A stretch of 64,000 nucleotides of DNA from an uncultured candidate division WWE3 bacterium (GCA_963765125.1 CAVXUZ010000005.1:177816-241815), one strand, 5' to 3'. Positions 179 through 27,510 are shown, counted from the stretch's first letter. Notes: generated by a model not told the origin, from the sequence alone. Made by a program: numbers and translations.

Positions 179-1693
179 CTACTTTACTTGTTTTAGCTCG
201 TTACCATCCCACTCAATCACAGGCCCGTTTCCATAATCTGCATTTATTTCTACTGAATGGTTTTGCCACGTTCCATAATCAATTGTTTTGTTCTCGGGAC
301 CTTCAAAAGGTACTATTGCAAAATAAAGTTTTATTTTATAGCTATTTGATGATGTCTCCTCCAATGTTCCACTTTCTTTAAACTGTGCTACCCGAAACTC
401 TCTTCTAAAGCTTTCACCATTATCAAAAACTTTACCCAAAGTATAAATACCACCAAGATCTATGTCCTCTTCAGGTTTAGCTGCTAAATCATCCCAGCAT
501 GTTGGTGAATAGCAAGTATCCATCATAAAAGAAGACCCGCTCACGTTTACCACTTTAATAATCTGATTTGGAATATCTTCTATCTTATTTTCAGTTATTT
601 CTTCTTTTACAACATCACCTGTTCTTTCAGTTTCTTTAGTTGAAATTGCCAAGAAATCCTCTACTTCTGCCTGTGTCATTGGCTTATATTCCTTGTTTAG
701 ACTCTTTAACCAAGCTTCGACTTCAACCATTTCCATTTCTGTAGCGGTGACGGTCTCTGGGTATTTAGCTTGTCTAATACGTTGAAAAGGTTTCTGATAT
801 TCAAAATTTCTAAGATCTACACCGATTACCTTACCTTCTTGAGCAGCGTCTCTAGCCTGCTCTAACCCGATCATCACGCTGTCGAATTTACCAAACGCAT
901 TACCAAGATTGCTGGGTACATTGGCAATAGTCAAAATATTGGCAATTGGCTCGGTTACAGTTCTTACATTTCCAACAAATGAAGATACTTTGTTTCTATC
1001 ACCCATAGCTATTTGAGCACCATCCTCGGTCACTTCTAGCGCCAAATCAACTCCTACAATAACCACAGATGCCTGAGTTAGTGTTCCAGCAGTAGCTAAT
1101 CCTGCAACGCCTCCGGTCAAGACAACTCCTCCAACGAAACCAACAACCTTACAACCATCCTTGACCACAATGGCGGTATTTTCTAATGTTTCAAAAGAAT
1201 CTCCTTCTTCTGTAAAGACATCAGAATTTATTTGAGCCTGAGCTTGATCTAGAATGATTTGAGCTCTTTTGGCATCCACACCCAAATGATTCGCTAAAGT
1301 TGAAATTCCTTTAAATCTTGGCGCTTTATCGTAGATAGCTGAGATTTCCTTAGCTGTATAAGCATTGACTATTTGAATTAATTGATAATTGGCAGCGGCT
1401 TTTTCTGCAGTGATAGTAGCAGAAGTCTCAAGTTTTTGTGATTCCTTTTCCAGGCTGTTCCAATCTTTAATCAACTCTGCCATATCGTTTTTCCATGTTG
1501 AGTAATCAGCATATTCTTCTGCGTTCACTAAGATATTATCGGTTCGATAGCGCAATATTAAATATGCTTTAGAGACGTCATACGTTGATCCTATGACTTT
1601 TTGCTCATTTTGATTACGATTATTAATAAGTAAAGCTACAACTATAACCAACACAATAATCGCAAAGAATATAAGTAGTTTTTTGTTTATCAT
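179..1693 (-). CDS. hypothetical membrane-anchored protein (single N-terminal TM, large extracytoplasmic domain)
   Basis: 504-aa ORF with a hydrophobic N-terminus (LLIFFAIIVLVIVVALLI). No recognised catalytic motif. Co-oriented immediately downstream of the giant surface protein. Confidence 0.5.
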   Translation of the reverse strand: MINKKLLIFFAIIVLVIVVALLINNRNQNEQKVIGSTYDVSKAYLILRYRTDNILVNAEEYADYSTWKNDMAELIKDWNSLEKESQKLETSATITAEKAAANYQLIQIVNAYTAKEISAIYDKAPRFKGISTLANHLGVDAKRAQIILDQAQAQINSDVFTEEGDSFETLENTAIVVKDGCKVVGFVGGVVLTGGVAGLATAGTLTQASVVIVGVDLALEVTEDGAQIAMGDRNKVSSFVGNVRTVTEPIANILTIANVPSNLGNAFGKFDSVMIGLEQARDAAQEGKVIGVDLRNFEYQKPFQRIRQAKYPETVTATEMEMVEVEAWLKSLNKEYKPMTQAEVEDFLAISTKETERTGDVVKEEITENKIEDIPNQIIKVVNVSGSSFMMDTCYSPTCWDDLAAKPEEDIDLGGIYTLGKVFDNGESFRREFRVAQFKESGTLEETSSNSYKIKLYFAIVPFEGPENKTIDYGTWQNHSVEINADYGNGPVIEWDGNELKQVK

Positions 1694-1762
1694 AAAGCAA
1701 TATTACTAGATTTAATTATTCTTACAAGCAAAAAAGATTTGATAGAAATTAATTTGTGATAG

Positions 1763-4700
1763 TTATAAATTAGGTGTAACAGTAAAATAAACAATATCTG
1801 TATATTCTCCCGCTATTGTGTTTGGGGACATCGTTGCTTTAAATAACAACGTTGCAGTTTCGTCTGCAACTCCTACAGTATTTGAAAAAATAGGATTTGT
1901 TGAGATTTCTAATCCACCTACAGTATTTCCACTTACATTATATTTTGAGTCAACCACAGCTGTAGCAGAACTTGCCTGGACACCGTAGCCTTCTACACCT
2001 GGTGTTAAAACCATGTCAGCTGACATAATTGTGCTACCAGAGCCGTTAAATAATCCACCAACATAACCATTGCCATCATCATTTATATAAACTTGGTATC
2101 CTGTATACCCGTTGGTATTAACTGCTACGTTCATAGTGGTAGTTTGAGAGATACTATTAATATTTAAGGTGCCCAATGTTAGAGATGCTTTTGAAACTGA
2201 CATGTTTACATAGGGTACAGTAGTAGTAGACGCATTAGATTCAGGGCTATACTCTGTCTCAGTAAAATCCCCTTGCAGTGCCTTTACTCTCGCTTTGTAT
2301 GTACTTTTTGGCATTAAATCAAGAATATAAGAGCCCGAACTTCCTCCCCACGAATCATAAGTTCTATAATCTTCTATTCCCAAAGTGTCTCCTACAGTAC
2401 CGTCGTTTTGTACATACTGATAAGAGCTGAAGTCGTTTGATGATACTTTGACTGCATATAAAGTGTCCGTAGGATTGCCCGCAGTGCTCAACGTTATGGT
2501 TAACCTACTATAAGAATTATCTGAATTTATTAAAGCCGGCGCATACGGTGTGTTAACTTCAATTCTTGAGTTATATCCAATCTTAGTTCTGAAACTAGCA
2601 GAGTCGTCAATTCCTGCAAACGGGTTTATTTCACCAAGTATGCCAAAGTTTGTACTAGACCCAGAGGCTGAGCCTGCAGAAAGAGCGTCACCTCTTATTC
2701 TAAAACTGGGGCTGTACATTTCATCTGACGTAAACTCTTGCTCATCCTCCCAACTACCGTAGGCGGGTTCGTTGTTAGTGTAACTCCTAATCCAAATTGC
2801 GTCATAGTTTGAATACGTTGTTGAGTAGGTAAAAACACCTGTTCTTCCGGTACTGTATGTGGTTTCACTTGATCTTGTTGTTGTACTTGTGGGTGTACCT
2901 GTATAAACAGCTGACTCGGTGTATAGTTCCGAGATAAGTGAATTACTATTTGCTCTATATAAATTAACCAGATACCAAGTATCTAAAGAAACTAAATAAG
3001 ATCCATTAGTAATAAGAGTGTATGAAGTGTCAACTCTAATTTGTGGAGAAACAGCGCCTCTACCATCTAATGTTGCCTGGTATCCGCTGTTTGCGGACGA
3101 CGCACCGGCTGTATGCAACCCTGGACCAAGTGTATCTACATCGATTGCGCCAGACTCAATACGAAGCCACCCCTCTTGAACATAGTTGTCAACGCTAAAA
3201 TTATTAACGTCCTGCATCTGAATTCTATAATCATTAGACGCATGATTTACGTCACCACAGCCGCTACCTTCTTTACACGAATTGGTACTAGTAGAAAATG
3301 TAATTCCCGAAGCACCCGCAGTATCAAAAAGAATGTTACTATCATCAAAATCCTCAAAATGATCAAACGTAGCAGAGCCATTGGATGTCGTTGATGCTGA
3401 GGAATTACCATAATAAATTAGAATACCAGCACCCCCTGATAAAGGAATAGAATCAATCTCAACATAAAAAACAGCCTTGTCACTATCAATTTTTTGTATA
3501 AGGTAATAGTCGAGCTCAACTCCATCGAGACTTGTAAATCTAATATCTCCAAAATCAGTTTTGCATTTGGAATCTAGGTATACATTCATGCCACTGTCAG
3601 TTCCACTGCCGTAATTTACAACTATCTTTTTTTCGTAGTTTAATAGTGTCCCGTCTACTGATGACTCAATATTTAATGGTTTTCTATATTGCCAAGAGCT
3701 ATTAAGCCAACCAGTAATCTCAATAATTGGCGCAACCTCTTCCTCTAAGCTCCAAAAGCCAAAAGTGGGTTCATCTTCTGTACGATTTCTAATCCATATT
3801 GCATCAAAATTTGAATATGCTGTTGAATATGCAAACACACCGTGTCTACCTGTATTGCGCGTGGTTTCACTTGAACGTACCGTTGTAGTTGTTGGTGTAT
3901 TCGTATATGCTGCTCCTTCAGTAAACAACTCAGACTTAATGTCACTACCATTATCCCTATAAAGGTTAATAAGATACCAGGTGTTCAATGCTATTTGATA
4001 CGCGCCATTCGTTCTCCCAGTATTGCTAGTATCTTCTCTTATTTGTGGTGATTCTGCACTCCTATAGTCTATTATTGCCTGGTAACCGTTCAGTGAAGAA
4101 GCTGCGCCTGCCATGTGCAAACCAGGTCCGAATTGATCGTTACCTGTAGCACCAGATTCAATCCTTAACCATCCCTCTTCAATATACTCGTCGACATCAA
4201 AATCTGTAGTGTTTTGCATTTGTGTTCTATACGCCATAGATGGATTATTTACATCACCGCACCCACCCCCTTCCTTACATGAAGTAGTACTTGCAACAAA
4301 AGTTACACCAGCAGATCCAGCTGTGTCGAAAAGCCAGCTACTGTCATCAAAGTCCTCAAAGTGATCAAAGGTAGCAGATCCGTTTGATGTAGTTGATGCA
4401 GCGACATTGCCATAATATATATATACGTCGGTTCCTCCAGAGGCTGGAATTGAATTAATTTCTACAAAAAAAGTTGCTTTATCACTATCAGTTTTTTGTA
4501 ATAGGTAATAGTCTAGTTCTGTTCCATTTTCTGTGGCAAACCTAATATCTCCAAAATCTATATTACTTTTTGAGTTTAAATACACGTCCATGTCGCTGTC
4601 AGTACCAGCACCATAATTTACAGTTATTTTTTTTTCGTAATTTGTTAACACACCATCCGCAGAAGAATTAATATGTATTGATTTTCTGTACTGCCAAGCG

Positions 4701-4849
4701 CTGCTAAACCAAGCAGCCTCAACAACAGGAGGGTTTATGATGAAGGTGAGAAAAATAGCTCCTACAGTTAAACAACAAAACAAGCCATAACGTATCTGAC
4801 AAAGTACTCTAAAACAAATACCTAATGTTTTTCTTAAATAGCGAAGCAT
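1763..4849 (-). CDS. large secreted/surface protein with two tandem DUF2341-like + concanavalin/LamG-like modules and a C-terminal Ig-like region
   Basis: 1028-aa ORF with an N-terminal signal/TM. Two ~330-aa internal copies each start with WQYRK..I.I.S..DG.L.NYEKKI.VNYG.GTDS, which matches my memory of the DUF2341 N-terminal signature. Each copy continues through FGDIRF...LDYYL and CKEG.GCGDVN. The C-terminal third has a beta-rich, Ig-like composition. Confidence 0.6.
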   Translation of the reverse strand: MLRYLRKTLGICFRVLCQIRYGLFCCLTVGAIFLTFIINPPVVEAAWFSSAWQYRKSIHINSSADGVLTNYEKKITVNYGAGTDSDMDVYLNSKSNIDFGDIRFATENGTELDYYLLQKTDSDKATFFVEINSIPASGGTDVYIYYGNVAASTTSNGSATFDHFEDFDDSSWLFDTAGSAGVTFVASTTSCKEGGGCGDVNNPSMAYRTQMQNTTDFDVDEYIEEGWLRIESGATGNDQFGPGLHMAGAASSLNGYQAIIDYRSAESPQIREDTSNTGRTNGAYQIALNTWYLINLYRDNGSDIKSELFTEGAAYTNTPTTTTVRSSETTRNTGRHGVFAYSTAYSNFDAIWIRNRTEDEPTFGFWSLEEEVAPIIEITGWLNSSWQYRKPLNIESSVDGTLLNYEKKIVVNYGSGTDSGMNVYLDSKCKTDFGDIRFTSLDGVELDYYLIQKIDSDKAVFYVEIDSIPLSGGAGILIYYGNSSASTTSNGSATFDHFEDFDDSNILFDTAGASGITFSTSTNSCKEGSGCGDVNHASNDYRIQMQDVNNFSVDNYVQEGWLRIESGAIDVDTLGPGLHTAGASSANSGYQATLDGRGAVSPQIRVDTSYTLITNGSYLVSLDTWYLVNLYRANSNSLISELYTESAVYTGTPTSTTTRSSETTYSTGRTGVFTYSTTYSNYDAIWIRSYTNNEPAYGSWEDEQEFTSDEMYSPSFRIRGDALSAGSASGSSTNFGILGEINPFAGIDDSASFRTKIGYNSRIEVNTPYAPALINSDNSYSRLTITLSTAGNPTDTLYAVKVSSNDFSSYQYVQNDGTVGDTLGIEDYRTYDSWGGSSGSYILDLMPKSTYKARVKALQGDFTETEYSPESNASTTTVPYVNMSVSKASLTLGTLNINSISQTTTMNVAVNTNGYTGYQVYINDDGNGYVGGLFNGSGSTIMSADMVLTPGVEGYGVQASSATAVVDSKYNVSGNTVGGLEISTNPIFSNTVGVADETATLLFKATMSPNTIAGEYTDIVYFTVTPNL
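2750..4711 (-). repeat. tandem duplication of a ~990-nt coding module (two copies, about 4711-3725 and 3724-2750) inside the surface-protein gene
   Basis: The protein copies are ~60-70% identical over ~325 aa. DNA-level similarity is also visible, e.g. ccaagagctattaagccaacc versus ctgccaagcgctgctaaaccaagc. Confidence 0.7.
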
Positions 4850-5551
4850 TGGTTTAATTTTAGCAGATATATATTAAGTAAATGAGGGGTTTGTCTTACT
4901 ACAAGGGATAAAACCAGTTTATATTTTCACTATGAGCTCCAAAAAGGTTTTTATGTGTAGTCTAGTTAAAATTTAATTATTTTGTAATTATCTATTTATG
5001 CATCAAAAGGTTTTTGTGGCTGACCATCGCCATCGATGTTAGAACTGCTATTTTAATTTAAAAGCACTCAGTAAGCCTTACAAACTCCAGAATTTCCACT
5101 CTCATATATACCCACCTCTTTTACCGCAATCTTTTTAAGTGTAGATGTTATTTCTTTCGTATCAACCTTTTGAGAGACTTTACCAAGCGTTACGTGTGAA
5201 TTGTAGGTTGTGAATACCCAAGGAGTGCTATATTTAAAGCCATTCGTTTTTCGTCTTTGTTGAGTTCATTCATATAATTACTATCATAGTATTTCTCCCT
5301 AACAAACCCATCTCTTTGAATACCTATCTTCTCAATAATTGTTTTCTGTAATTTTCTTAACTCGCCACTTAACTTGAAATTGAGATATCGATACATTGAT
5401 AAAGGTCACAAAAAAGGAAATGAAGTTATTACCGTTTCCAATAATCATAGCTAAAAGTCCTTGTATGTTTAATGTTTATATCCCAATTGAAAGACAATTA
5501 TGGTTTGGTGATTTTGCATGACGCTACACTCATAATCTGTATAATTAAAGT

Positions 5552-6157
5552 ATGAAAAATAATAAACTAATCTCAATTCTGATAATAATCTTAGTTTGTA
5601 TGGGTTATTTACTATATAAAAATAATCAAAGTGAATCACCAAATAAATCCCCTGAAATTACAACAATGGAACAAACTGAACCTAAAGACGAAAAACACCA
5701 AATAGGATTAAGCAACCCTGCATCGACCTATTGCGCACAGAACAATGGTGAGTTGGAAATAATTACCGATGCTGATGGAAGCCAATTTGGTCTATGCAAA
5801 TTTAAGGATTTCTCTTGCGAGGAGTGGACTTACTTTAGAGGCGAGTGCGACATTACAGGAGATGCTGAGAGTATTAGACAGGAACTAATTAAAAAAGGGT
5901 TAGATCTTTCAAAAATGAAAGTGGTTATAAACAAGCATTTAGGTAAATATATTGGAGCGTCTGTCGTACCTGTAGACATCAGTGAGGGTGGTGGCGGTGG
6001 TTACGTGTTTGCGGTAAAAGATGAGGGCGTAATTAAAGTACTAGCTGACGGTAACGGGATAATTTCATGTGAGTCGTTTAAGGATTATCCTGAATACCCA
6101 GCATATTTAGTATCTGGATGTGTGGATTCTGTTACGGGCGATGTTGTGAAAAGATAG
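5552..6157 (+). CDS. secreted DUF333 (putative hemolysin/YoaF-like) domain protein with an extra C-terminal domain
   Basis: N-terminal TM/signal, then NPASTYCAQNNGELEI...DGSQFGLCKF.DFSCEEWTYFRGEC, the characteristic Cys-rich DUF333 motif. Good SD/AT-rich upstream. Confidence 0.55.
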   Translation: MKNNKLISILIIILVCMGYLLYKNNQSESPNKSPEITTMEQTEPKDEKHQIGLSNPASTYCAQNNGELEIITDADGSQFGLCKFKDFSCEEWTYFRGECDITGDAESIRQELIKKGLDLSKMKVVINKHLGKYIGASVVPVDISEGGGGGYVFAVKDEGVIKVLADGNGIISCESFKDYPEYPAYLVSGCVDSVTGDVVKR

Positions 6158-6951: not shown

Positions 6952-7025
6952 TGGCTGGGGAACAGGGACTCGAACCCCAATTTTCGGGACCAAAACCCGA
7001 CGTGCTGCCATTACACCATTCCCCA
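6952..7025 (-). tRNA. tRNA-Gln (anticodon UUG)
   Basis: The reverse complement folds as a canonical cloverleaf: acceptor TGGGGAA/TTCCCCA, anticodon stem TCGGG/CCCGA with loop TTTTGGT, T-loop GGTTCGAGTCC, 3' CCA encoded. Confidence 0.8.
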
Positions 7026-7069
7026 ATGGTTTACTAAAACTCAAAAAATCACCAAACCAAAAATATATT

Positions 7070-7147
7070 TGGTGGGCCTGCATGGGACTCGAACCAAGGA
7101 CCTCTCGGATGTAAACCGAACGCTCTAACCAGCTGAGCTACAGGCCC
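7070..7147 (-). tRNA. tRNA-Val (anticodon UAC), T-arm imperfect
   Basis: Reverse complement GGGCCTGTAGCTCAGCTGGTTAGAGCG...TTTACAT...GGTTCGAGTCC...CAGGCCCACCA. Acceptor, D-arm and anticodon arm are canonical. The T-stem has mismatches or one extra nt (78 nt including CCA). Confidence 0.55.
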
Positions 7148-7225: not shown

Positions 7226-8122
7226 ATGAGATTGAAGCTACTTTTACTATTTACGATTATTATCGTTTGCACGCTACTTCTATATTTTGTAGCCGATTTA
7301 GATAATCACAATGTTTTAGGCCTAAAAAACGACGAGTCATCGGTTTTTGAAAAGTTTTTACCGAAGTTTAATACTCTTCAAAGAAGTTCACGATTTAAAA
7401 ATCTAACTGATGTAACTAAAGGTAAAGAAGGAACATTTGGAATTTATATTAAAGATTTAGATTCTGGTGCTACTTTCGCTTTTAATGAGACAGAGTTATT
7501 TTATGCGGCGTCTCTATTTAAAACTCCCCTAGCAGCGTCTGTGCTAAAACTCGTAGATGAGGGCGCTCTTAAATTAGATAACGAAAATATTTACACGCAG
7601 TCAGATTATTCTGACGGTACTGGTTCAATTGCTTACAACTCTTACGGTTTAACTTACACCTATGACCAACTACTAGACCTATTACTAAAAGAATCTGATA
7701 ATTCTGCACAAAATATAATTATGAGAACAATAGGTGCTCCAAACGCTGAAAATGCATTTAAACTAATTCCACTAAAAAATCACTTTTTTGAGAATAATAC
7801 TGCCACTCCTGAACAAATCGCTATTTTTTATGAAAAGCTTGTAATGAGCAACTATTTAAAGAAAGACAGCTTAGATAGCCTTTTGGAGCGTATGAAGAGC
7901 ACTTTGTTTGATGATAGGGTGCATTTAGGTCTTGAAGAAAACGTTGAATTTGCGCATAAAATTGGCAATTGGCCAGATACTTCAACTTGGCATGACTGTG
8001 GTTTGGTGATTGACGAAAATAATACAATAGTCGTTTGCTTGATGAGTAGATACACTACGCTTGAAGATTTTAATATAGTAGCTAAGAGTACAGGTGAATT
8101 TGTTAATTACCTGCTAGACTAA
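7226..8122 (+). CDS. class A beta-lactamase-related serine hydrolase (PBP-like), membrane-anchored
   Basis: SxxK (AASLFKTP), SDN (ESDNSAQN) and a KTG-like HKIGNW in the correct order and spacing. N-terminal TM. Confidence 0.55.
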   Translation: MRLKLLLLFTIIIVCTLLLYFVADLDNHNVLGLKNDESSVFEKFLPKFNTLQRSSRFKNLTDVTKGKEGTFGIYIKDLDSGATFAFNETELFYAASLFKTPLAASVLKLVDEGALKLDNENIYTQSDYSDGTGSIAYNSYGLTYTYDQLLDLLLKESDNSAQNIIMRTIGAPNAENAFKLIPLKNHFFENNTATPEQIAIFYEKLVMSNYLKKDSLDSLLERMKSTLFDDRVHLGLEENVEFAHKIGNWPDTSTWHDCGLVIDENNTIVVCLMSRYTTLEDFNIVAKSTGEFVNYLLD

Positions 8123-10660: not shown

Positions 10661-11692
10661 TTAAGAAAGCGGTAGGATAACTGTAAAAGTTGAACCTTTA
10701 TTGATAGTAGATTCTGCTTTAATACATCCACGATGTAATTCAACAATATTTTTAGCAATGGAAAGTCCCAAACCAAACCCTTTGTATTCATTTTTTGATC
10801 TTGATTTGTCTGCGCGGTAAAACCTTTCGAATATGTGCTCGAGTTGCGATTTTTCTATACCTACACCGCTGTCAGTTACTGTAATGACGGCGTTTTTACC
10901 CCTCTGTATGAGTTTAATATCAATCTCTGAGTTTTCTTTACTGTATTTAACAGCATTATCTAACAACACAGTTGCAAGTTCTCCAATACTTCTCTCATTT
11001 GCTTTAATTTGTAAGTCAGCTAAATTAGAAATGAGTTTAATATTTTTTACACTAGCTTGTTTATTTATCGAAGATATAGATTTCTCTAAAACTTCTCTCA
11101 AATTAATCACGCTTTTTTCAAGTTTAGAATTAATTCCTTGATAATAATTCTCTGCTAATAAATCTTCTGTTAGATTTTGAAGTTTGTTTACTTCATCTAG
11201 ATTACTTTGCAGTAATTCTCTATTTTGTATTTTTTTGTCCCTTAAGCTAACCTCAATTTCTGTTTTCAACGCGGTTACAGGTGTTTTTAATTCGTGTGCA
11301 GCATCTGAAATAAATTGTTTTTGAGAATTCAAAACTTTTTCAATTGGTTTTAATGTTTTACCGGCTAAAAAATAACCTAAGGCTGCTGAGCCAACAATAA
11401 TTGCTAAATTAATCTTTATGAGTGTATTTTTTAAATCACTGTGAATTTCCAAGAGCGTATTTTCTTCAAACATTGGGTTTCTAGGTTGTCTATTATCAAC
11501 AATTCCAGTAGATGGTGGAAATATCTTATCAAGTAGTTCTTTGCGCTGCTCCATACGCTCTTGCTGAAATAAAAGCGCTCTACGTGTAGACATCACGGTA
11601 TTGCTATAAATAAAGATGCTGAATATTAGTGAAACTGAAGAAATCACCAACACATACCAAACTGTTAATTTTAATTTAGCGTCTGTAAACAT
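10661..11692 (-). CDS. sensor histidine kinase (HisKA + HATPase_c), two TM segments
   Basis: H-box AAHELKTP. N, G1 and G2 boxes (DSGVGI...GFGLGLSI). The start overlaps the response-regulator stop. Confidence 0.85.
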   Translation of the reverse strand: MFTDAKLKLTVWYVLVISSVSLIFSIFIYSNTVMSTRRALLFQQERMEQRKELLDKIFPPSTGIVDNRQPRNPMFEENTLLEIHSDLKNTLIKINLAIIVGSAALGYFLAGKTLKPIEKVLNSQKQFISDAAHELKTPVTALKTEIEVSLRDKKIQNRELLQSNLDEVNKLQNLTEDLLAENYYQGINSKLEKSVINLREVLEKSISSINKQASVKNIKLISNLADLQIKANERSIGELATVLLDNAVKYSKENSEIDIKLIQRGKNAVITVTDSGVGIEKSQLEHIFERFYRADKSRSKNEYKGFGLGLSIAKNIVELHRGCIKAESTINKGSTFTVILPLS

Positions 11693-12360
11693 TATTCTGA
11701 TACCTTATAACCAAAACCACGAACTGTCTTAATATAATTTGTCTTAAACGGCCTGTCTATTTTTTGTCTTAAATATCTAATATATACCTCTACTGTATTT
11801 GGCAAAATATCTGATTCAAAACTCCAAACGCTCTCCATTATTTGATCTTTACTCATAACGTGATCTTTGTGTCGCATTAAATATTCAAGCAATGCAAACT
11901 CTTTTTTTGTAAGTAAAACGTCGAGACCATTTATTTTTACAGTTGAATTAGTTAAATCTAATGACAACTCTCCGATAGCAAGTAACTCATCTGTGTATTG
12001 ACGTGGCCTTCGCGAAATTGCTTTAACTCGCGCGAGCAGCTCCTCAAACTCAAATGGTTTTGTAAGATAATCGTCAGCACCAATATTTAAACCGTCTACT
12101 TTGTCTCTCAGCTGACTTTTAGCTGTAAGCATTAGTATTGGTGTGGTGATTTTATCTGCTCTTAGAGAAGTACAAATCTCTTCGCCGGGCATCGAAGGTA
12201 GCATTAAATCCAAAATTATAATGTCATAGGTTTCTGATGACGCTAAATCATAACCCTCTTCTCCGTCATAAGAAACATCAACTATATGGTTTTCTTGCTC
12301 AAGGCCTTTTTTAATAGAGTTCGCTATTTTAATGTCATCTTCAACTACTAAAATCTTCAT
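11692..12360 (-). CDS. OmpR-family response regulator
   Basis: Receiver domain (MKILVVEDD...ILDLMLP...K) plus a winged-helix C-terminus (ALLEYLMRH...RGFGYKV). Confidence 0.9.
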   Translation of the reverse strand: MKILVVEDDIKIANSIKKGLEQENHIVDVSYDGEEGYDLASSETYDIIILDLMLPSMPGEEICTSLRADKITTPILMLTAKSQLRDKVDGLNIGADDYLTKPFEFEELLARVKAISRRPRQYTDELLAIGELSLDLTNSTVKINGLDVLLTKKEFALLEYLMRHKDHVMSKDQIMESVWSFESDILPNTVEVYIRYLRQKIDRPFKTNYIKTVRGFGYKVSE

Positions 12361-20406: not shown

Positions 20407-20457
20407 AGAATTATTGTATCAAATAAAAATATTGAACTGATATGTTGGGAAAAAGAT

Positions 20458-20532
20458 GGTGGGGAGGGTGGGGATCGAACCCACATAGCCGGTTTTTCAG
20501 ACCGGTGCCTTGACCAACTTGGCTACCGCCCC
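20458..20532 (-). tRNA. tRNA-Phe (anticodon GAA)
   Basis: Reverse complement GGGGCGGTAGCC...CTGAAAA...GTGGGTTCGATCCCCAC...CCTCCCCACCA. Canonical except for one C:U mismatch in the acceptor stem. Confidence 0.75.
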
Positions 20533-20541
20533 ATTACAATT

Positions 20542-20616
20542 GGAGCGAGAGACGGGACTCGAACCCGCGGCCTCTTCCTTGGCAAGGAAGCGTTCTACCA
20601 CTGAACTACTCTCGCG
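20542..20616 (-). tRNA. tRNA-Gly (anticodon GCC)
   Basis: Reverse complement GCGAGAGTAGTTCAGTGGTAGAACG CTTCC TTGCCAA GGAAG...GGTTCGAGTCC...CTCTCGCTCCA. All stems pair. Confidence 0.85.
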
Positions 20617-20747: not shown

Positions 20748-22433
20748 TTACCAACTTCCACCGCCACCGCCACCGCCCCCACCGCCTGAGAATCCTCCAC
20801 CGCCTGAAAACCCGCTAGAGAAGCCGCTAGAGCTTCTGGATGAGCTATAATGGCTCATTGAGGATGAAACAGCGCTGTTTATGTTGTGTGTAAGTCCAGA
20901 AAATACAGCAGCATTTGCAAGATCTCCAGAGTACCAATCAGTTTTTAGTTCTCCTAAATCTTTGAATCGTTTAATCCATACATCTTCTACGCCAAAGGCT
21001 GCAGCGTAAGGAAGGAGTTTTTCAAAGAACATCATCGCCTCTGCTTGAAAATCTAATTGCGCATCTTGACTTACTAGAAAGTTTTTTAATGAGGCAGTTT
21101 TTGAATACTTATCTATTCCCTTGTCTGTAAATTTTATAAAGTGTCGATGATAGTAGAAAAGTACTAAAAGCAATGGGATGTTAGCTGTGAAGAGAGCAAG
21201 CCCTACTAGTACCCAATGTTTTGCTTTTTCGTTTGATAAATCACCAACAAAAAGATTTTTCTTTTCTAATGCTTCGACCGATTTTTCCATAAATTTCTGA
21301 ATATTTTCTCCTAGTGTTATAGATTTCTTCAATTCCACAAAACTTGCCATGTCAGAGTTCTCAAATATTGCATCATAGAGGAGCTTTTCGTAATCCTCTA
21401 AACCTGTTGCAGCTTGTTTAGTATTTTTTACAAAATATAATTTCTTTTCCTGCTGTTCAATTTTAAAATAACCTCTTTGCGCAAGATGTATGATTGTTGC
21501 TGATACTTCTTTTTGGTCAGGTTTTTTATCAATGAGTACTCCAGTCTCTGCTGGTGTATAAAAAGTTCCGTTATCATTTGTTGGCGGTTCAAACCAAGCA
21601 GCAACCTCTTGCTTATTATTCTTAAAGAACTTCTTAAAACCATGCCTTTTAATTATAATTTTTACTGGAAGAACTATTACCCAGAAAAAATAACCTAAAC
21701 CTAAGATAATAGGTAGTATTGTTTCCCATATACTTTTCTTTACTTCAACAGGCTCGAGTTGTGCTACAAAGCCTTTTGGAAATCCAACTACACCGGTGAT
21801 GCCCTCGTTCATTCCAAGTAATTCTGCAGTGATCAGCGCGCCTTTTTCAGTAACTAATTTATTGCATGATTGATCGGTAGACCCCTTTATCCCTCGATAG
21901 CACATCGCATTTATTTCGGAGCCTATAACACTATCCGGCAGAATTACATTGTTTTTAGATGAATAAATTGGCACATTCCATTCGTTTCCTGTGAAGTTCC
22001 AAAACATTTCATCATGGTCTTCGTAGTATGTTACGGCACCAGATACAACGTAGTTTATTTTATATATTTTAGTACCTGTTATAAGTTTGTCGGCGTCCCC
22101 AATTTTAATTGTAAGTTTTCCTGAAGAGTTATCGCTAGACTCAACAAATGTATATGCCGTACCAATATCATCTGTAACCGAAACATCCGAAATCAACATT
22201 TTAAATGTCTTACCATCCTGGTTTGTTTTAAAGTAAGGAATTATTCTAAAAATCCCATGTCTCTGCTCTTCACCAAAATTATATTTTATTGTCTCGTTAA
22301 CAAATATCTGACCGTCAGATTCAACTCTTACGGTGCTATCAAAAGACTCAATTACCTCCCCTGCAAAAACATGAGTCGAAAATATCATTAAAAGTAGTGA
22401 AAATATTAAAGATTTTAAAGTTATGCTTTGCAT
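20748..22433 (-). CDS. DUF2207-family membrane protein
   Basis: Signal peptide, extracytoplasmic N-domain, TM helices, and a C-terminal Ser/Gly tail (SSSRSSSGFSSGFSGGGGFSGGGGGGGGGGSW) characteristic of DUF2207 proteins. Confidence 0.55.
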   Translation of the reverse strand: MQSITLKSLIFSLLLMIFSTHVFAGEVIESFDSTVRVESDGQIFVNETIKYNFGEEQRHGIFRIIPYFKTNQDGKTFKMLISDVSVTDDIGTAYTFVESSDNSSGKLTIKIGDADKLITGTKIYKINYVVSGAVTYYEDHDEMFWNFTGNEWNVPIYSSKNNVILPDSVIGSEINAMCYRGIKGSTDQSCNKLVTEKGALITAELLGMNEGITGVVGFPKGFVAQLEPVEVKKSIWETILPIILGLGYFFWVIVLPVKIIIKRHGFKKFFKNNKQEVAAWFEPPTNDNGTFYTPAETGVLIDKKPDQKEVSATIIHLAQRGYFKIEQQEKKLYFVKNTKQAATGLEDYEKLLYDAIFENSDMASFVELKKSITLGENIQKFMEKSVEALEKKNLFVGDLSNEKAKHWVLVGLALFTANIPLLLVLFYYHRHFIKFTDKGIDKYSKTASLKNFLVSQDAQLDFQAEAMMFFEKLLPYAAAFGVEDVWIKRFKDLGELKTDWYSGDLANAAVFSGLTHNINSAVSSSMSHYSSSRSSSGFSSGFSGGGGFSGGGGGGGGGGSW

Positions 22434-22437
22434 ATAA

Positions 22438-22524
22438 TGGTGGGCGAGACAGGACTTGAACCTGCACCGGTTTTACCCGACAACGACCTCAACGTTGCGC
22501 GTATACCAATTCCGCCACTCGCCC
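22438..22524 (-). tRNA. tRNA-Leu (anticodon GAG)
   Basis: 87 nt with a long variable arm. Reverse complement GGGCGAGTGGCGGAATTGG...CAACG TTGAGGT CGTTG...GGTTCAAGTCC...CTCGCCCACCA. Confidence 0.8.
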
Positions 22525-22551
22525 GAGTACATGCAACATTATAACAGCTAG

Positions 22552-22914
22552 GTGTTAACTTGTTTACTAGATTTCGGGATGGTATACTATGGGGCAATAC
22601 TAGAGAAAGGATCAGAGATGGGCACGCCAGGTTTAGTAGTAATCGACTGTCTTTTTGTAGACGATGTCGCTGCTGTTTTAAAACATGTTGAAAATACAGC
22701 TGGGGTTTGTTTTACCCTAAACCAGAGCGGCTACCACAGTTCGGGAGCAGTTGCAGTGGCTACAGGCACACGATATCTGAGATTTTATGGGTTAACCCCT
22801 GAAGAGGAAACAAATGTCAGAAAAGTGGCCGATGAGTTCATTGCAACACTTGTAGAAAAACGTGGTGGTTTATTATCAAAAAATGAAAACTTATCAGAAA
22901 TGTATATGCACTAG
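22552..22914 (+). CDS. hypothetical protein (start probably at the MGTPGLVV... Met near 22618); GC-richer than flanks
   Basis: 120-aa ORF between two tRNA genes, followed by a terminator. No family recognised. Confidence 0.4.
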   Translation: MLTCLLDFGMVYYGAILEKGSEMGTPGLVVIDCLFVDDVAAVLKHVENTAGVCFTLNQSGYHSSGAVAVATGTRYLRFYGLTPEEETNVRKVADEFIATLVEKRGGLLSKNENLSEMYMH

Positions 22915-22926
22915 GTTCTATTTGAA

Positions 22927-22971
22927 GAGCTGAGTAAATATCCAACAAAGGATAACTCAGCTTCTTTTTTT
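22927..22971 (+). terminator. rho-independent terminator
   Basis: gagctgagt ... actcagct stem followed by tcttttttt. The loop is long (~19 nt). Confidence 0.4.
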
Positions 22972-22974
22972 GCA

Positions 22975-23061
22975 TGGTGCCAGAGAAGGGATTTGAACCC
23001 ATATTCTCTTTCGAGAACAGCCTTCTGAAGACTGCGTGTCTACCAATTTCACCACTCTGGC
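22975..23061 (-). tRNA. tRNA-Leu (anticodon CAG)
   Basis: 87 nt. Reverse complement GCCAGAGTGGTGAAATTGGTAGACACG CAGTC TTCAGAA GGCTG, long variable arm, GGTTCAAATCC, CTCTGGCACCA. Confidence 0.8.
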
Positions 23062-23066
23062 TTAGT

Positions 23067-23141
23067 TGGTGAGGGCGGAGGGATTCGAACCCTCGACAAA
23101 CTGGTTAAGAGCCAGCTACTCTACCACTGAGCTACGCCCCC
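23067..23141 (-). tRNA. tRNA-Lys (anticodon CUU)
   Basis: Reverse complement GGGGGCGTAGCTCAGTGGTAGAGTA GCTGG CTCTTAA CCAGT...GGTTCGAATCC...CGCCCTCACCA. Confidence 0.8.
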
Positions 23142-23195
23142 AAATCACCAAGCCATTTAATGCTTTAAGATATTATTTCAAGTATAAGGTAATGA

Positions 23196-23648
23196 TTAAT
23201 ATCCGCCAAACCTATTATCTTTTATTTTTTTAATCTCTTTTTCTAAATTAAGAATGTATTCTGATCGTTTTAAACTCAACATGATAAAGATAATTAAACC
23301 GATTATGATCAGGACAAACATTATATAAGGACCAGCTTTATTCTCAATATTACCTATTGAAGGCTCAGTTGTGCCATAAACTTGCTGCAGCATCTCTGAT
23401 TTAGTATCTAAAGCAGCTTGATCATCTTTGACCTGAACTTGTTTACCATCTAAATTAAGTACCACGTCACCCTGAGGGCTAAATTGCTGAGGTTTGTTAA
23501 TGTCAAAGTAAGTTTTTACAGCGTTATCTTCAGGCGGTGTTTGAATCTTTTTTGGCTCTTCTGCAGGTGTATTTAAAACCGCCTCGTCTATCTTTTTTAC
23601 GTTTTCTAAAGAACTAAAATCTTCTTGTTGTATATTTTGATTATCCAT
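23196..23648 (-). CDS. hypothetical protein with a C-terminal TM anchor
   Basis: 150 aa. Acidic/proline-rich N-terminal part and one TM helix (YIMFVLIIIGLIIFIMLSL). Confidence 0.4.
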   Translation of the reverse strand: MDNQNIQQEDFSSLENVKKIDEAVLNTPAEEPKKIQTPPEDNAVKTYFDINKPQQFSPQGDVVLNLDGKQVQVKDDQAALDTKSEMLQQVYGTTEPSIGNIENKAGPYIMFVLIIIGLIIFIMLSLKRSEYILNLEKEIKKIKDNRFGGY

Positions 23649-23666
23649 AATAGTTTTTTAATTTAA

Positions 23667-23742
23667 TGGCGCCCCCAAAGAGATTCGAACTCCCAACCCC
23701 TCGGTCCGAAGCCGAGTGCTCTATCCATTGAGCTATGGGGGC
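23667..23742 (-). tRNA. tRNA-Arg (anticodon UCG)
   Basis: Reverse complement GCCCCCATAGCTCAATGGATAGAGCA CTCGG CTTCGGA CCGAG...GAGTTCGAATCTC...TGGGGGCGCCA. Confidence 0.85.
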
Positions 23743-24599: not shown

Positions 24600-25784
24600 T
24601 TATTCAAATCGTAACGCCTCTATAGGATCTTTTTTACTTGCTTTTATTGCAGGGTATGTGCCAAAGATAACTCCCACTAAAACAGAAAAACCAAACGCTA
24701 GTAATACAGCCCAAAAAGGTACTTCGGTTCTTACAAACGCTCGTCCTGCAAAAGATGCAAGCCAGCCAAGTAATAACCCAACAGAACCACCACCTACGCC
24801 AATCATGACAGACTCGAACAAAAACTGTAGCGCAATGTCTCTAGAAGTTGCTCCTAAAGCTTTTCTTAAGCCTATTTCCTTTATTCTCTCCGTCACCGAA
24901 ACTAGCATTATATTCATAATACCGATGCCTCCTACTAACAATGAGATGCCTGCGATTGCACCAATTGCCGCAGTGAGCATACCAAGAACATTTTGAATCG
25001 ATGAAAGTACATCTTCTGCGGACACGACAGAGAAATCTTCTTCTTTCAAATCTCTAAGTAAAGCAAATTTTGCCTCTTTTATTGCAAGTTCTATAACGTC
25101 ACTACTTTTTGCGCTCATTGTTATACTGGATAATACTGCAGTATTAAAATCTTCCGTCACTCTTTTATAAGGGATGTAGACAATTTCATCCCAATCCTGA
25201 CCTTTTTTACTAGTTATCCCAACTATCTCATAATCATTGTCTTCAATCTTTATTTTTTTACCGATTGGGTTTGCGTTAGAGAAAAGCTCTTTAACTATAT
25301 TTGGTGATATTACAGCAACTTTGGCTTTGCTCTTATCTTCTGTATCAGAAAAGAATCTTCCTTTTTCAATCTTAATATTAAATATTTCTTTTGTATTTGA
25401 TGTTACGCCGTAGACAGTTCCGTAAAACTTATTTGTACGATATTCGATATTTTTACCAAATGTAATATTCGGGGCTATTTCGTCAATATAATCGGTGGCA
25501 AATGTTCTTAGAAGCTCAACATGTTTATCTTCAAATTTAATATTACCAAATGTTTTTGATGGATCATCAGTGAAACCAACCTTACCAGGAATAACAAATA
25601 CAACATTTGCTCCAAGTGATTCAAATTGGTCTTGCACATAATTTTGAATACCGATTCCCACCGATACGAGGCTTACAACTGCAAATACGCCAATTATTAC
25701 GCCAAGCATTGTTAGCGCAGTACGGCCTTTATGAAGTACCAACGCCCTATGTGATGATTTTATTGTTTCGATAATGCTTATCAT
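24600..25784 (-). CDS. ABC transporter permease, FtsX/MacB family
   Basis: MacB_PCD-like periplasmic domain between TM1 and three C-terminal TMs. Typical C-terminal GxxPAxKAxxxDPIEALRYE. Confidence 0.8.
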   Translation of the reverse strand: MISIIETIKSSHRALVLHKGRTALTMLGVIIGVFAVVSLVSVGIGIQNYVQDQFESLGANVVFVIPGKVGFTDDPSKTFGNIKFEDKHVELLRTFATDYIDEIAPNITFGKNIEYRTNKFYGTVYGVTSNTKEIFNIKIEKGRFFSDTEDKSKAKVAVISPNIVKELFSNANPIGKKIKIEDNDYEIVGITSKKGQDWDEIVYIPYKRVTEDFNTAVLSSITMSAKSSDVIELAIKEAKFALLRDLKEEDFSVVSAEDVLSSIQNVLGMLTAAIGAIAGISLLVGGIGIMNIMLVSVTERIKEIGLRKALGATSRDIALQFLFESVMIGVGGGSVGLLLGWLASFAGRAFVRTEVPFWAVLLAFGFSVLVGVIFGTYPAIKASKKDPIEALRFE

Positions 25785-26449
25785 TTCGTTATCTTTCCGT
25801 CAGATATAATTATTCTTCTGTCTGCAATCTTTGCGAGATCTTCGTCGTGCGTGACAATCACGATTGTTTTTCCCTCAACGTGAAGTTTATGAAAAAGCTT
25901 TTCAATTTCTGTTCCAGTTTTTGTATCTAAATTACCAGTCGGCTCATCTGCAAATATAATTGATGGATCTGTTACAAGTGCGCGTGCTATTGCAACTCTT
26001 TGTTTTTGTCCACCAGATAGTTCATTTGATTTGTTATTTAATCTATCACTGAGCTCTACCGCTTCTAAACTTTTTAAAGCCTTTTCTTTCCAAAATCGCT
26101 TTGGTAAATCGCTGTATTGTAAAGGAAGCGTTACGTTGTCTAGTGATGTTGTTCTGGGCAACAAATTGAAAAATTGAAAGATAAATCCTATTTCTTTATT
26201 TCTGATTCTCGCTTGTTCTTTTTCGGTGATATTACTAACATCTTTTCCATTTAGATAAAGTTTTCCTGATGATGGCGTGTCTAGTAATCCTAGTATATGC
26301 ATGAGCGTTGACTTGCCTGATCCTGATTTGCCTACAATTGCAACAAACTCGCCTTTTTCAATATCGAGTGATATTTTATCTAAAGCAATTATTTCTTCTT
26401 CATCTACGTGATAGATTTTTGATAGATTTTTAGCTTGGAGTACGAGCAT
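25781..26449 (-). CDS. ABC transporter ATP-binding protein (MacB/LolD-type)
   Basis: Walker [10 protein letters not shown], signature [15 protein letters not shown], Walker [13 protein letters not shown]. The stop overlaps the permease start. Confidence 0.9.
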
Positions 26450-26460
26450 TTCTTACAGGA

Positions 26461-27510
26461 TTAGTTGTTTATAATCCTCACTTTAATACCTTCTTTAAGC
26501 TCATTTTTCGTGTCCGAAACCTTAACTATTTTGTTTGTTGGAATTGTTTTGATCTCTGTAAAAATATCCCCCTGTAAGCCAATTTCGATATATTCTTTTT
26601 TAACCTTGTTGTTGTCACTTACGTATAAAAACGGTTTATCTTCAATGTCATAATATATATCGTCAAAAGTTAATGAGGGTACTTCTTTTTCTGAAGACGC
26701 AAGAATTATATAGGCATCTCCGTTCATTCCTAAAAGTACCTTATCTTTGTTTTCACCAGAAAACTTAATTTTAACTATAAAATCAGAGCCATTACCCGCG
26801 TCAACATACTGAGGTAGAGCTTCTACGACCCCTAAAAACTTTTCACCATCGTATGCGTCTAGAGCAATTTCAACATTCTGGCCGACTGATAGGTAACCAT
26901 AATCTTCTTGATCAATTTCAATTTCAAACAAAAGATTATCTACATCAGCAATTTTGACTATGGTTTCACCGGGTGACGCAATTTCGCCTTCTTCTTTAAA
27001 AGTATCTATAACAGTTCCTTCAATTGGCGAATAAATATACTTTGTGCCTACACTTGCTAACTGTGAATTATATGTAGCTTGAGCTTGGCTGATTAACTCG
27101 TCATATTTTCTTAATTCCATGTAATACTCGTCTTCGCCACCTGCAGCTGATACGTTGGAGCTGTATTGTTTTATAAACATTTCTTTATTTCTTATAGCTA
27201 TATCTCTAGCGTCTTTATACGCCTTTGCTGACTGTGAATCGGCATATGCGTCAATCATTGCAACATATTGATTTGTAGTAACATTTTCTCCTTCTTTTAT
27301 TGAAATATCAGTTATTTTGCCAAATCCAGAAAAAGACAAATTGACATCGTTGTTTGAAATGACTTTTCCGCTTGCGCTCACAGTCTTTTTTATAATTTTG
27401 TTGTCAACTTTTACTTCTGTAACCTCAATTACCTTACCTCTAGTGAATAGAAATATTCCTCCAATGGCAACTACTGCAATTAAGATTAAATACCACTTTT
27501 TTCTTATCAT
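26461..27510 (-). CDS. HlyD/MFP-family periplasmic adaptor
   Basis: N-terminal TM, coiled-coil middle, beta-barrel/lipoyl-like ends. First gene of the adaptor / ABC ATPase / permease triplet. Confidence 0.65.
   Translation of the reverse strand: MIRKKWYLILIAVVAIGGIFLFTRGKVIEVTEVKVDNKIIKKTVSASGKVISNNDVNLSFSGFGKITDISIKEGENVTTNQYVAMIDAYADSQSAKAYKDARDIAIRNKEMFIKQYSSNVSAAGGEDEYYMELRKYDELISQAQATYNSQLASVGTKYIYSPIEGTVIDTFKEEGEIASPGETIVKIADVDNLLFEIEIDQEDYGYLSVGQNVEIALDAYDGEKFLGVVEALPQYVDAGNGSDFIVKIKFSGENKDKVLLGMNGDAYIILASSEKEVPSLTFDDIYYDIEDKPFLYVSDNNKVKKEYIEIGLQGDIFTEIKTIPTNKIVKVSDTKNELKEGIKVRIINN

Follow-up and report, generated by a model that had tools for sequence, protein, structure and literature searches.

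The gene at positions 1763 to 4849 (minus strand) of a 64,000-nucleotide stretch of DNA from an uncultured candidate division WWE3 bacterium (GCA_963765125.1 CAVXUZ010000005.1:177816-241815; "the window" hereafter designates this whole stretch) codes for a protein of 1028 amino acids that is probably a surface adhesin exported by the Sec pathway. It would bind glycans through two lectin-type heads carried by a base that belongs to a conserved family of secreted proteins from Patescibacteria, an arrangement resembling that of the large WxL proteins of Firmicutes. The probability that we attach to this reading is roughly 0.55. The base would be provided by the last 323 residues (a flexible segment, a fibronectin type III (FN3) domain and a terminal beta-sandwich) and the heads by two cassettes, each composed of a DUF2341 domain and a jelly roll, placed between the signal peptide and the mature amino terminus of the base. 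The family domain would keep the protein attached to the cell wall or to the surface of the membrane, probably via a WxL-interacting protein (WxLIP)-like protein encoded at another place in the genome. With the FN3 domain as a spacer, the two heads would point away from the cell and bind carbohydrates of a host cell or of a substrate. The overall design would be that of the Firmicute large WxL adhesins.

Organization of the protein and of its carboxyl-terminal base

The open reading frame (ORF) is intact in the ORF listing of the window and encodes 1028 residues followed by a stop codon, with a signal peptide, the two cassettes and the conserved family region in this order. The ORFs and the repeat lie where the initial annotation had placed them. 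The signal sequence (residues 1–45, 4715..4849, minus strand as all features of this gene) was recognized by a hydropathy scan and by inspection. It features a basic n-region and a hydrophobic core at residues 19–45, and ends with VVEA|AW, the probable cleavage site; the equivalent position in standalone relatives of the base also bears a signal peptide (alignment A2). The extreme carboxyl terminus (...IVYFTVTPNL) has neither an LPXTG motif nor a hydrophobic segment, as seen in the sequence and in the hydropathy scan, and the protein does not qualify as a sortase-anchored (LPXTG) surface protein. Public data contain an identical 1028-residue protein in a contig of 482 kb and, independently, in a Logan contig of 4.2 kb; in the latter, too, the neighbor begins 69 nt past its end. 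The two-copy architecture is thus no peculiarity of a single assembly.

The region that had been described as an Ig-like carboxyl terminus is not a generic Ig tail: the last 323 residues are a complete conserved secreted protein of Patescibacteria whose usual form is a standalone polypeptide of 330–360 residues. It starts with a flexible segment (residues 706–768, 2546..2734; pLDDT <50) with strands of the S-x-(N/S)-F-x-(I/L) type (SPSFRI, STNFGIL, SASFRT), followed by the FN3 domain (residues 769–874, 2228..2545), which has the seven-strand sandwich of this fold. The terminal beta-sandwich (residues 875–1028, 1766..2227; pLDDT 92–98; ending ...YTDIVYFTVTPNL) is the signature domain of the family and has no tryptophan and no LPXTG motif. 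The model of the complete region (pLDDT 84) combines a low-confidence segment of ~60 residues, with three short S-x-N-(F/Y)-x-(I/L) strands, and a well-predicted terminal beta-sandwich. Two fold searches yielded matches dominated by the FN3 domain and did not identify the terminal beta-sandwich.

A search with residues 700–1028 alone retrieved 40 proteins, the best 27 of which are standalone (229–386 residues), 45–64% identical over most of the query and devoid of Pfam annotation. Identity to standalone proteins of 329–361 residues reaches 59–64% over 98% of the length. In alignment A2 the signal peptides of the standalone proteins end in ...A-(D/E)-E and the homologous segment starts at once, while in the window protein this segment begins at ...EFTSDEMYSPSFRIRGD. 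Because the standalone signal peptides end where homology starts, the alignment puts the two cassettes precisely at the junction of the signal peptide with the mature amino terminus of the family. An exhaustive profile search delimited a family of at least 231 representatives (clusters at 50% identity) at E<=1e-30 and 1045 at E<=1e-10, in which the terminal domain ends within 5 residues of the carboxyl terminus in 201 of 202 instances. GTDB genomes that code for it are all Patescibacteria, the closest ones labeled WWE3 or generically Saccharibacteria, and the best match to the carboxyl-terminal region in the GTDB genome scan is 59% identical. There is no synteny between the window and the loci of these relatives.

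The DUF2341/jelly-roll cassettes

Cassette 1 consists of a DUF2341 beta-sandwich (residues 46–170, 4340..4714), whose best PF10102 stretch spans residues 98–171, and of a jelly roll (residues 171–375, 3725..4339) with a C-x5-C loop (SCKEGGGCGD) and then a short acidic linker. Cassette 2 repeats this order with a second DUF2341 stretch (residues 380–504, 3338..3712), 71% identical to the first, and a jelly roll (residues 505–705, 2735..3337) with the loop SCKEGSGCGD, whose fold is assigned from the model of the first copy. The initial annotation had recognized a WxYRK motif that it associated with DUF2341, and a profile search bears this out: Pfam DUF2341 (PF10102) matches the protein in two stretches (E 8.2e-41; 138.8 bits against a cut-off of 23.4 bits), and the motif opens both copies (AWQYRKSI and SWQYRKPL). 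Just beyond the Pfam envelope, on its amino-terminal side, W-x-YRK forms the first strand of the predicted DUF2341 sandwich. When the two copies are aligned with 20 complete cassettes of other proteins (alignment A1, 22 cassettes, all matching DUF2341 in Pfam), W7 and K11 are invariant and R10 is at least 90% conserved. There is no further credible Pfam match in the 1028-residue protein, no Laminin_G model being found even at E<=1. NCBIfam and PHROGs gave no significant family for it or for the 504-residue protein encoded downstream, and sequence searches of PDB gave nothing useful, whether the query was the entire protein or the profile of the cassette.

The fold of the second half was addressed by structure prediction. 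AlphaFold run on A1 produced an all-beta two-domain model (pLDDT 90.8, pTM 0.90) whose strands at residues 9–101 have pLDDT 93–97. When this model was compared to PDB with Foldseek, 26 matches had E<=1e-3, and lectins, CBM66 and the carboxyl-terminal domain of thrombospondin prevailed among them. The matches include galactocerebrosidase (E 3e-7) with an alignment of 332 columns, which we take to cover the part made of its sandwich and its lectin domain, CBM66 4b1m (TM 0.75 normalized to the target, E 6e-6), and legume lectins and Emp47 at about E 1e-3 to 1e-4. The other matches are the carboxyl-terminal domains of thrombospondin and COMP, ERGIC-53 and the receptor-binding region of botulinum toxin (BoNT). 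On the basis of these matches the second half of each copy is modeled as a concanavalin-A-like jelly roll. In the aligned relatives the same region matches Pfam 3keto-disac_hyd (1.4e-8, 2 of 22) and Laminin_G_3 (0.0055, 1 of 22), a family that Pfam describes as "Concanavalin A-like lectin/glucanases superfamily". The designation "LamG-like" given earlier to this region is thus right for the predicted fold and does not extend to membership of the Laminin_G families, PF13385 and PF02210 having no match in the window protein.

The jelly rolls might alternatively be catalytic, of glycoside hydrolase, lyase or 3-keto-disaccharide hydrolase type, in which case the protein would be an enzyme that processes polysaccharides at the surface. 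The 3keto-disac_hyd matches of the two aligned relatives in the equivalent region, a further such match in the headed relative P0350 and the presence of glucanases in the fold class described by Pfam speak for it. The top structural matches are, however, non-catalytic binding modules (CBM66, L-type lectins, the thrombospondin carboxyl-terminal domain, the BoNT receptor-binding region), the 1028-residue protein matches no enzyme family at E<=1 in Pfam and NCBIfam, and the nearest relatives of the cassettes are encoded in phage tail regions, where the usual role is binding. A catalytic function is rather unlikely on this balance, and the jelly rolls are preferentially read as carbohydrate-binding heads.

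An adhesin role has been suggested for the DUF2341 module (PMC4858521, PMC11809585), a proposal made without an experimentally established function. The domain was described in giant proteins of Patescibacteria (PMC11809585), in amino-terminal appendages of ExbB/TolQ-like proteins (PMC12505986), and in archaeal type IV pilus loci, where its carrier is a putative tip adhesin (PMC4858521). That the window protein is likewise a tip adhesin associated with a type IV pilus is very improbable: its amino terminus, inspected by eye, does not look like a class III (prepilin) signal, a Pfam scan of 20 neighboring ORFs revealed no pilus gene, and the conserved context of its carboxyl-terminal family is WxLIP-like (see below) and not made of pilus genes.

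Two further features of the cassettes were recorded. The C-x5-C loop is present in both jelly rolls (residues 191–197 and 525–531, nt about 4259–4279 and 3257–3277) and could be closed by a disulphide near the binding face; P0002, the closest relative, has no C-x5-C at the corresponding position. In P0007, another DUF2341 homolog, tryptophan is found at many positions where all relatives have glycine (e.g., YYWKTWATTTS versus YYGKxxATTTS). This pattern suggests an organism that reads UGA as glycine (code 25), or its phage, whose sequence was translated with UGA as tryptophan.

Recurrence of heads on the family

Amino-terminal heads are found on other members of the carboxyl-terminal family. 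P0302 carries two DUF2341 domains with Laminin_G_3 (a strong match), P0350 carries DUF2341 with 3keto-disac_hyd, P0364 carries DUF2341, and P0334 a beta-propeller/FG-GAP head, in all cases with the family domain at the carboxyl terminus; P0289 and P0265, also members of the carboxyl-terminal family, have an fn3 head. The cassettes of headed relatives are 24–39% identical to those of the window protein and their carboxyl-terminal regions 28–33%; the window carboxyl-terminal region is ~60% identical to standalone WWE3 proteins. Since the headed relatives are this distant from the window protein in both parts, the head fusions are independent events, and the head-on-base design arose independently in distant relatives. 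An adhesin or glycan-binding system had been suspected from the start. Extracellular binding remains a reasonable proposal in view of the signal sequence, while the qualification "lineage-specific" does not hold for a design that recurs independently.

The conserved WxLIP-like neighbor

A gene for a WxLIP-like protein (~290–420 residues) lies within a few kb of the gene of the carboxyl-terminal family in 15 of 16 distinct loci; 12 of these loci were found by the first phmmer round and 3 were added by profile rounds, the sole exception being cut by a contig end. Ten of 18 neighbors match Pfam WxLIP_PGBD (formerly DUF916; best E 1.3e-8), and the neighbor profile matches EfmWxLIP1 of Enterococcus faecium in PDB (9i25, 9i1y; E 8e-7). 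Neighbors aligned to P0276 and P0356 bear a carboxyl-terminal membrane helix. In P0276, P0356 and P0265 the WxLIP-like protein is fused to the carboxyl-terminal family. Sequence similarity identifies the conserved neighbor as a homolog of the WxL-interacting protein (WxLIP, DUF916). Loci of this kind (L001–L024) are exemplified by the WxLIP homologs at L002:5798-6781(-), L004:4821-5759(-) and L021:12032-14116(+). In this set the homologs adjoin one to four paralogous small secreted proteins that have no WxL motifs, and six of the closest loci (L001, L002, L004, L010, L011, L015) code for small paralogs with the terminal domain at 27–34% identity. The terminal domain of the window protein has 30–33% identity to small paralogs of related loci.

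In the known systems, WxL clusters combine small WxL proteins, large WxL proteins with amino-terminal binding domains, and a WxLIP that is membrane-anchored and predicted to insert a strand into the WxL domain (PMC9772566, PMC10599100). For EfmWxLIP1–WxL, a hairpin strand of WxLIP is described as completing the sandwich (PMC10599100). The loci of Patescibacteria contain an equivalent set of parts, in which the window protein takes the place of a large member. By analogy, the terminal domain of the window protein may work like a WxL domain, which is not to say that it is one, membership of the WxL family not being established. Among the top-ranked papers of the literature search, none combined WxL or DUF916 with Patescibacteria or the Candidate Phyla Radiation.

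Several points weigh against the proposal of a large-WxL-like adhesin. The window has, over its 64 kb, no WxLIP-like gene and no small paralog of the carboxyl-terminal family. The terminal domain has no Trp-x-Leu motifs, the family consensus at the candidate positions being G-Y-x-V and V-Y-F-T-V. Two hmmscan runs at E<=1, one with 37 family members and one with 21, did not detect WxL (PF13731), and profile searches of PDB with the family at E<=10 hit no WxL chain and only FN3-type noise. Because there are neither WxL motifs nor a sequence match, the analogy is one of context and architecture only. In addition, the fused architecture of the window protein itself was found in a single organism by the homolog search, cleavage of its signal peptide at VVEA is deduced from hydropathy, inspection and the standalone relatives, and carbohydrate binding is predicted from the fold, concanavalin-A-like folds occurring also in enzymes.

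A broader and more tentative possibility is that Patescibacteria possess a display system equivalent to the WxL–WxLIP pair of Firmicutes, with a WxL-equivalent domain diverged beyond recognition and swappable heads that include the cassette subtype of phage fibers; the window protein would then be a two-headed example of it. Patescibacteria mostly live attached to other cells and their mode of attachment is largely unknown. If the possibility is correct, head swapping would be one way for these epibionts to gain or change attachment specificity. If the anchoring model holds, it would offer a way to test how Patescibacteria display proteins at their surface and recognize hosts, and it would extend WxL-type systems well beyond Firmicutes. 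Taken alone, the gene codes for one more predicted and fairly ordinary adhesin, a new combination of domains within known kinds. The broader lead is the large carboxyl-terminal family that is nearly always encoded beside a WxLIP homolog and has acquired different heads several times, some of them cassettes that are also found in phage tail proteins.

Note also, as a separate observation, that the cellular DUF2341-lectin protein P0008 (L108:5144-7432) has a short end domain with a W-x-L-like motif (TATWTLEI ... YTIDMTLTVS), which may point to a connection of DUF2341 heads with WxL-type tails.

Age of the repeat and selection on its copies

BLASTP of residues 1–375 against residues 376–1028 pairs residues 46–371 with residues 380–705 (215 of 326 identical, 66%, no gaps, E 2e-146), in agreement with the two copies of ~330 residues, about two-thirds identical, noticed initially. 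Identity is 71% in the DUF2341 part and 63% in the jelly-roll part, again without gaps. At the DNA level the copies are 67–68% identical with a period of 1002 nt, a likeness far above chance. Nei–Gojobori comparison of the two copies gives pS 0.73, dS ~2.8 (saturated), dN 0.25 and dN/dS ~0.09. No run of identical DNA exceeds 17 nt, and the G+C content at third codon positions (GC3) is 0.28–0.29 in the copies against a background of 0.29 +/- 0.04 in the window genes. Among the sampled cassettes the copies are sisters in 93.5% of 200 neighbor-joining (NJ) bootstraps.

The saturation of synonymous sites, the low dN/dS, the even spread of differences and a GC3 equal to the background show that the duplication is ancient and that both copies are maintained by purifying selection. 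The initial annotation had regarded the repeat as recent enough to invite copy-number variation. Recent duplication and copy-number variation are rejected on account of the pS, the saturated dS and the 17-nt longest run, which leaves no substrate for homologous recombination, and copy-number instability is thus unlikely to affect this sequence. Recent horizontal transfer of the cassettes is likewise rejected in view of their GC3. Divergence focused on loops, as expected from a changed specificity, finds no support: strands are 71% identical and non-strands 62%, a difference that is not significant (Fisher p = 0.10). The pair was either duplicated in place or came already duplicated, two histories that the sequence does not separate.

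Repeats are a general hazard in metagenome assemblies, and a tandem repeat can result from mis-joining or expansion of reads. Such an artifact is hardly credible here: the copies differ at one third of their nucleotides with at most 17 identical in a row, so that they are not confusable by short reads, both copies are read in one intact frame, and the identical protein is found on the independent contig.

Relation to phage tail fibers

The closest relative of the cassettes, P0002 (62% identity), is encoded between a tail-fiber PHROG gene and an HNH endonuclease gene on one side and holin and amidase endolysin genes on the other; the contig of P0004 (52%) also codes for RusA, an SU10-type adaptor and a terminase. 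Viral contigs of IMG/VR contain 83 stretches that encode DUF2341 relatives, while the phage genomes of INPHARED gave only two weak archaeal-virus matches. Other close relatives, P0003 and P0008, are cellular. The cassettes could accordingly be phage receptor-binding modules, and the gene a prophage remnant, or a host-encoded decoy or receptor mask directed against phage adsorption, as the surroundings of P0002 and P0004 and the IMG/VR stretches would allow. This is quite improbable. Neighbors of the gene are a DUF333 gene, tRNA genes, a beta-lactamase-like gene and a two-component system; no phage gene lies near it among the 20 ORFs scanned with Pfam, and the window proteins have no PHROG match. 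The gene codes for a signal peptide and a cellular carboxyl-terminal family, its cassettes are old and have the GC3 of the background, and P0003 and P0008 belong to cellular loci. Our reading of these sequences is that of a binding cassette common to phage fibers and cell-surface proteins, and not of a prophage remnant. The phage-like contigs L025:1-13849 and L026:1-18673, which code for the putative tail-fiber proteins with the same cassette subtype (62% and 52%), have a G+C content of 43% and 39%, respectively, against 35% in the window.

The downstream gene

A 69-nt AT-rich spacer (1694..1762) separates the large gene from a co-oriented gene (179..1693, minus strand) coding for a protein of 504 residues, a member of a separate Patescibacteria family, that has one strong hydrophobic helix at residues 1–28 (Kyte–Doolittle 3.4), its predicted amino-terminal membrane anchor. 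A single-pass membrane protein of this length had been reported at a distance of 70 bp and taken as an operon partner; the protein is found as described and the partnership does not receive comparative support. The consensus scan found no terminator-like or promoter-like site in the spacer, and read-through with co-transcription is possible. The family of the 504-residue protein has more than 424 homologs (49–77% identity) and no Pfam match. It features an extremely conserved region of ~320 residues that includes an almost invariant glycine-rich hydrophobic stretch (VKDGCKVxGFVGGVVLTGGxAGLAxAGTLTQ...DLALEVTEDGAQIA) and three mutually exclusive carboxyl-terminal domains. Homologs at 66–72% identity are found in three different neighborhoods, the gene context being variable.

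If the two genes formed a dedicated surface operon, the membrane protein would anchor or export the large one. The common orientation, the 69-nt distance without terminator- or promoter-like site, the repetition of this adjacency on the independent contig and the amino-terminal membrane helix are all compatible with such a pair. The idea is nevertheless an unlikely one in view of the comparative data. The three loci of 504-residue homologs, unrelated to one another, have no DUF2341 gene or gene of the carboxyl-terminal family within 8 kb, and the 16 distinct loci of that family have neither a 504-residue homolog nor a DUF2341 cassette, so that the pairing recurs in none of them. Moreover, the 504-residue family, with its more than 424 members, is conserved to a much higher degree than the large protein, and its own carboxyl-terminal domain is exchanged among members. 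The 504-residue protein is probably not part of the system of the 1028-residue protein, for which anchoring through a WxLIP-like protein is the preferred proposal.

Other genes of the window

The large gene and the divergent DUF333 gene (5552-6157) are separated by an AT-rich intergenic region of 700 nt (4850-5551; 31% GC) in which no Rfam match was found and promoter-like sites are no commoner than in shuffled sequence. Farther away lie ten tRNA genes in three small clusters (6952-7147, 20457-20615, 22438-23742) and genes for a class-A beta-lactamase-like protein (7226-8122), a two-component system (10661-12360) and a DUF2207 membrane protein (20748-22433). The 20 ORFs of the window scanned with Pfam include no mobile-element genes, and the context is that of an ordinary chromosome. 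A MacB-type ABC exporter (FtsX/MacB_PCD permease and ATPase) is encoded together with a membrane-fusion protein of the HlyD family at 24600-27510(-). Patescibacteria are generally assumed to have no outer membrane, and a membrane-fusion protein is then unexpected.

Comparison with known systems

Phage tail-fiber or receptor-binding proteins (P0002 in L025, P0004 in L026, IMG/VR) have the same cassette subtype as the window protein, with 52–62% identity over all 325 residues. They differ from it in having no signal peptide and no domain of the carboxyl-terminal family, and the window gene stands in an ordinary chromosomal context. CBM66 and the L-type lectins (legume lectins, ERGIC-53, Emp47) have the predicted jelly-roll fold in common with the cassette; with only 7–14% sequence identity the likeness is known at the level of the fold. 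Unlike in these proteins, the jelly roll of the cassette is always preceded by a DUF2341 sandwich.

Proteins with DUF2341 and concanavalin-A-like/LamG domains are widely annotated and uncharacterized in Patescibacteria, Asgard and DPANN archaea, Bacteroidota and viruses. The two-domain unit of ~325 residues of the window protein aligns end to end with 29 cassettes of other proteins, and tandem cassettes are also found elsewhere (e.g., P0009, P0011, P0012, P0021, P0022). Unlike those of the known proteins, the window cassettes are joined to a different carboxyl-terminal family, their jelly roll is too divergent for the Laminin_G models of Pfam, and the two copies are closest to each other (NJ bootstrap 93.5%).

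The window protein was finally compared to the large WxL proteins (Lwp/CscC) of Lactobacillales, Listeria and Enterococcus (PMC9772566, PMC10599100, PMC1534035). Unlike WxL, its terminal domain has no Trp-x-Leu and no sequence match in Pfam or PDB. More than 91% of WxL sequences are from Firmicutes, whereas the hosts of the carboxyl-terminal family are Patescibacteria. WxL genes are clustered with a WxLIP gene (organization DUF916-DUF3324-TM, TM being a transmembrane segment) and a second small member; the window gene is detached from any WxLIP-like gene in 64 kb. As in WxL clusters, the loci of its relatives hold a WxLIP homolog with a PGBD domain, a second Ig-like domain and a carboxyl-terminal membrane helix, and small standalone and large headed versions coexist within the carboxyl-terminal family. 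The order of parts is also that of large WxL proteins: a signal peptide, amino-terminal binding domains, beta-sandwich spacers and then, at the extreme carboxyl terminus, the domain that defines the family.

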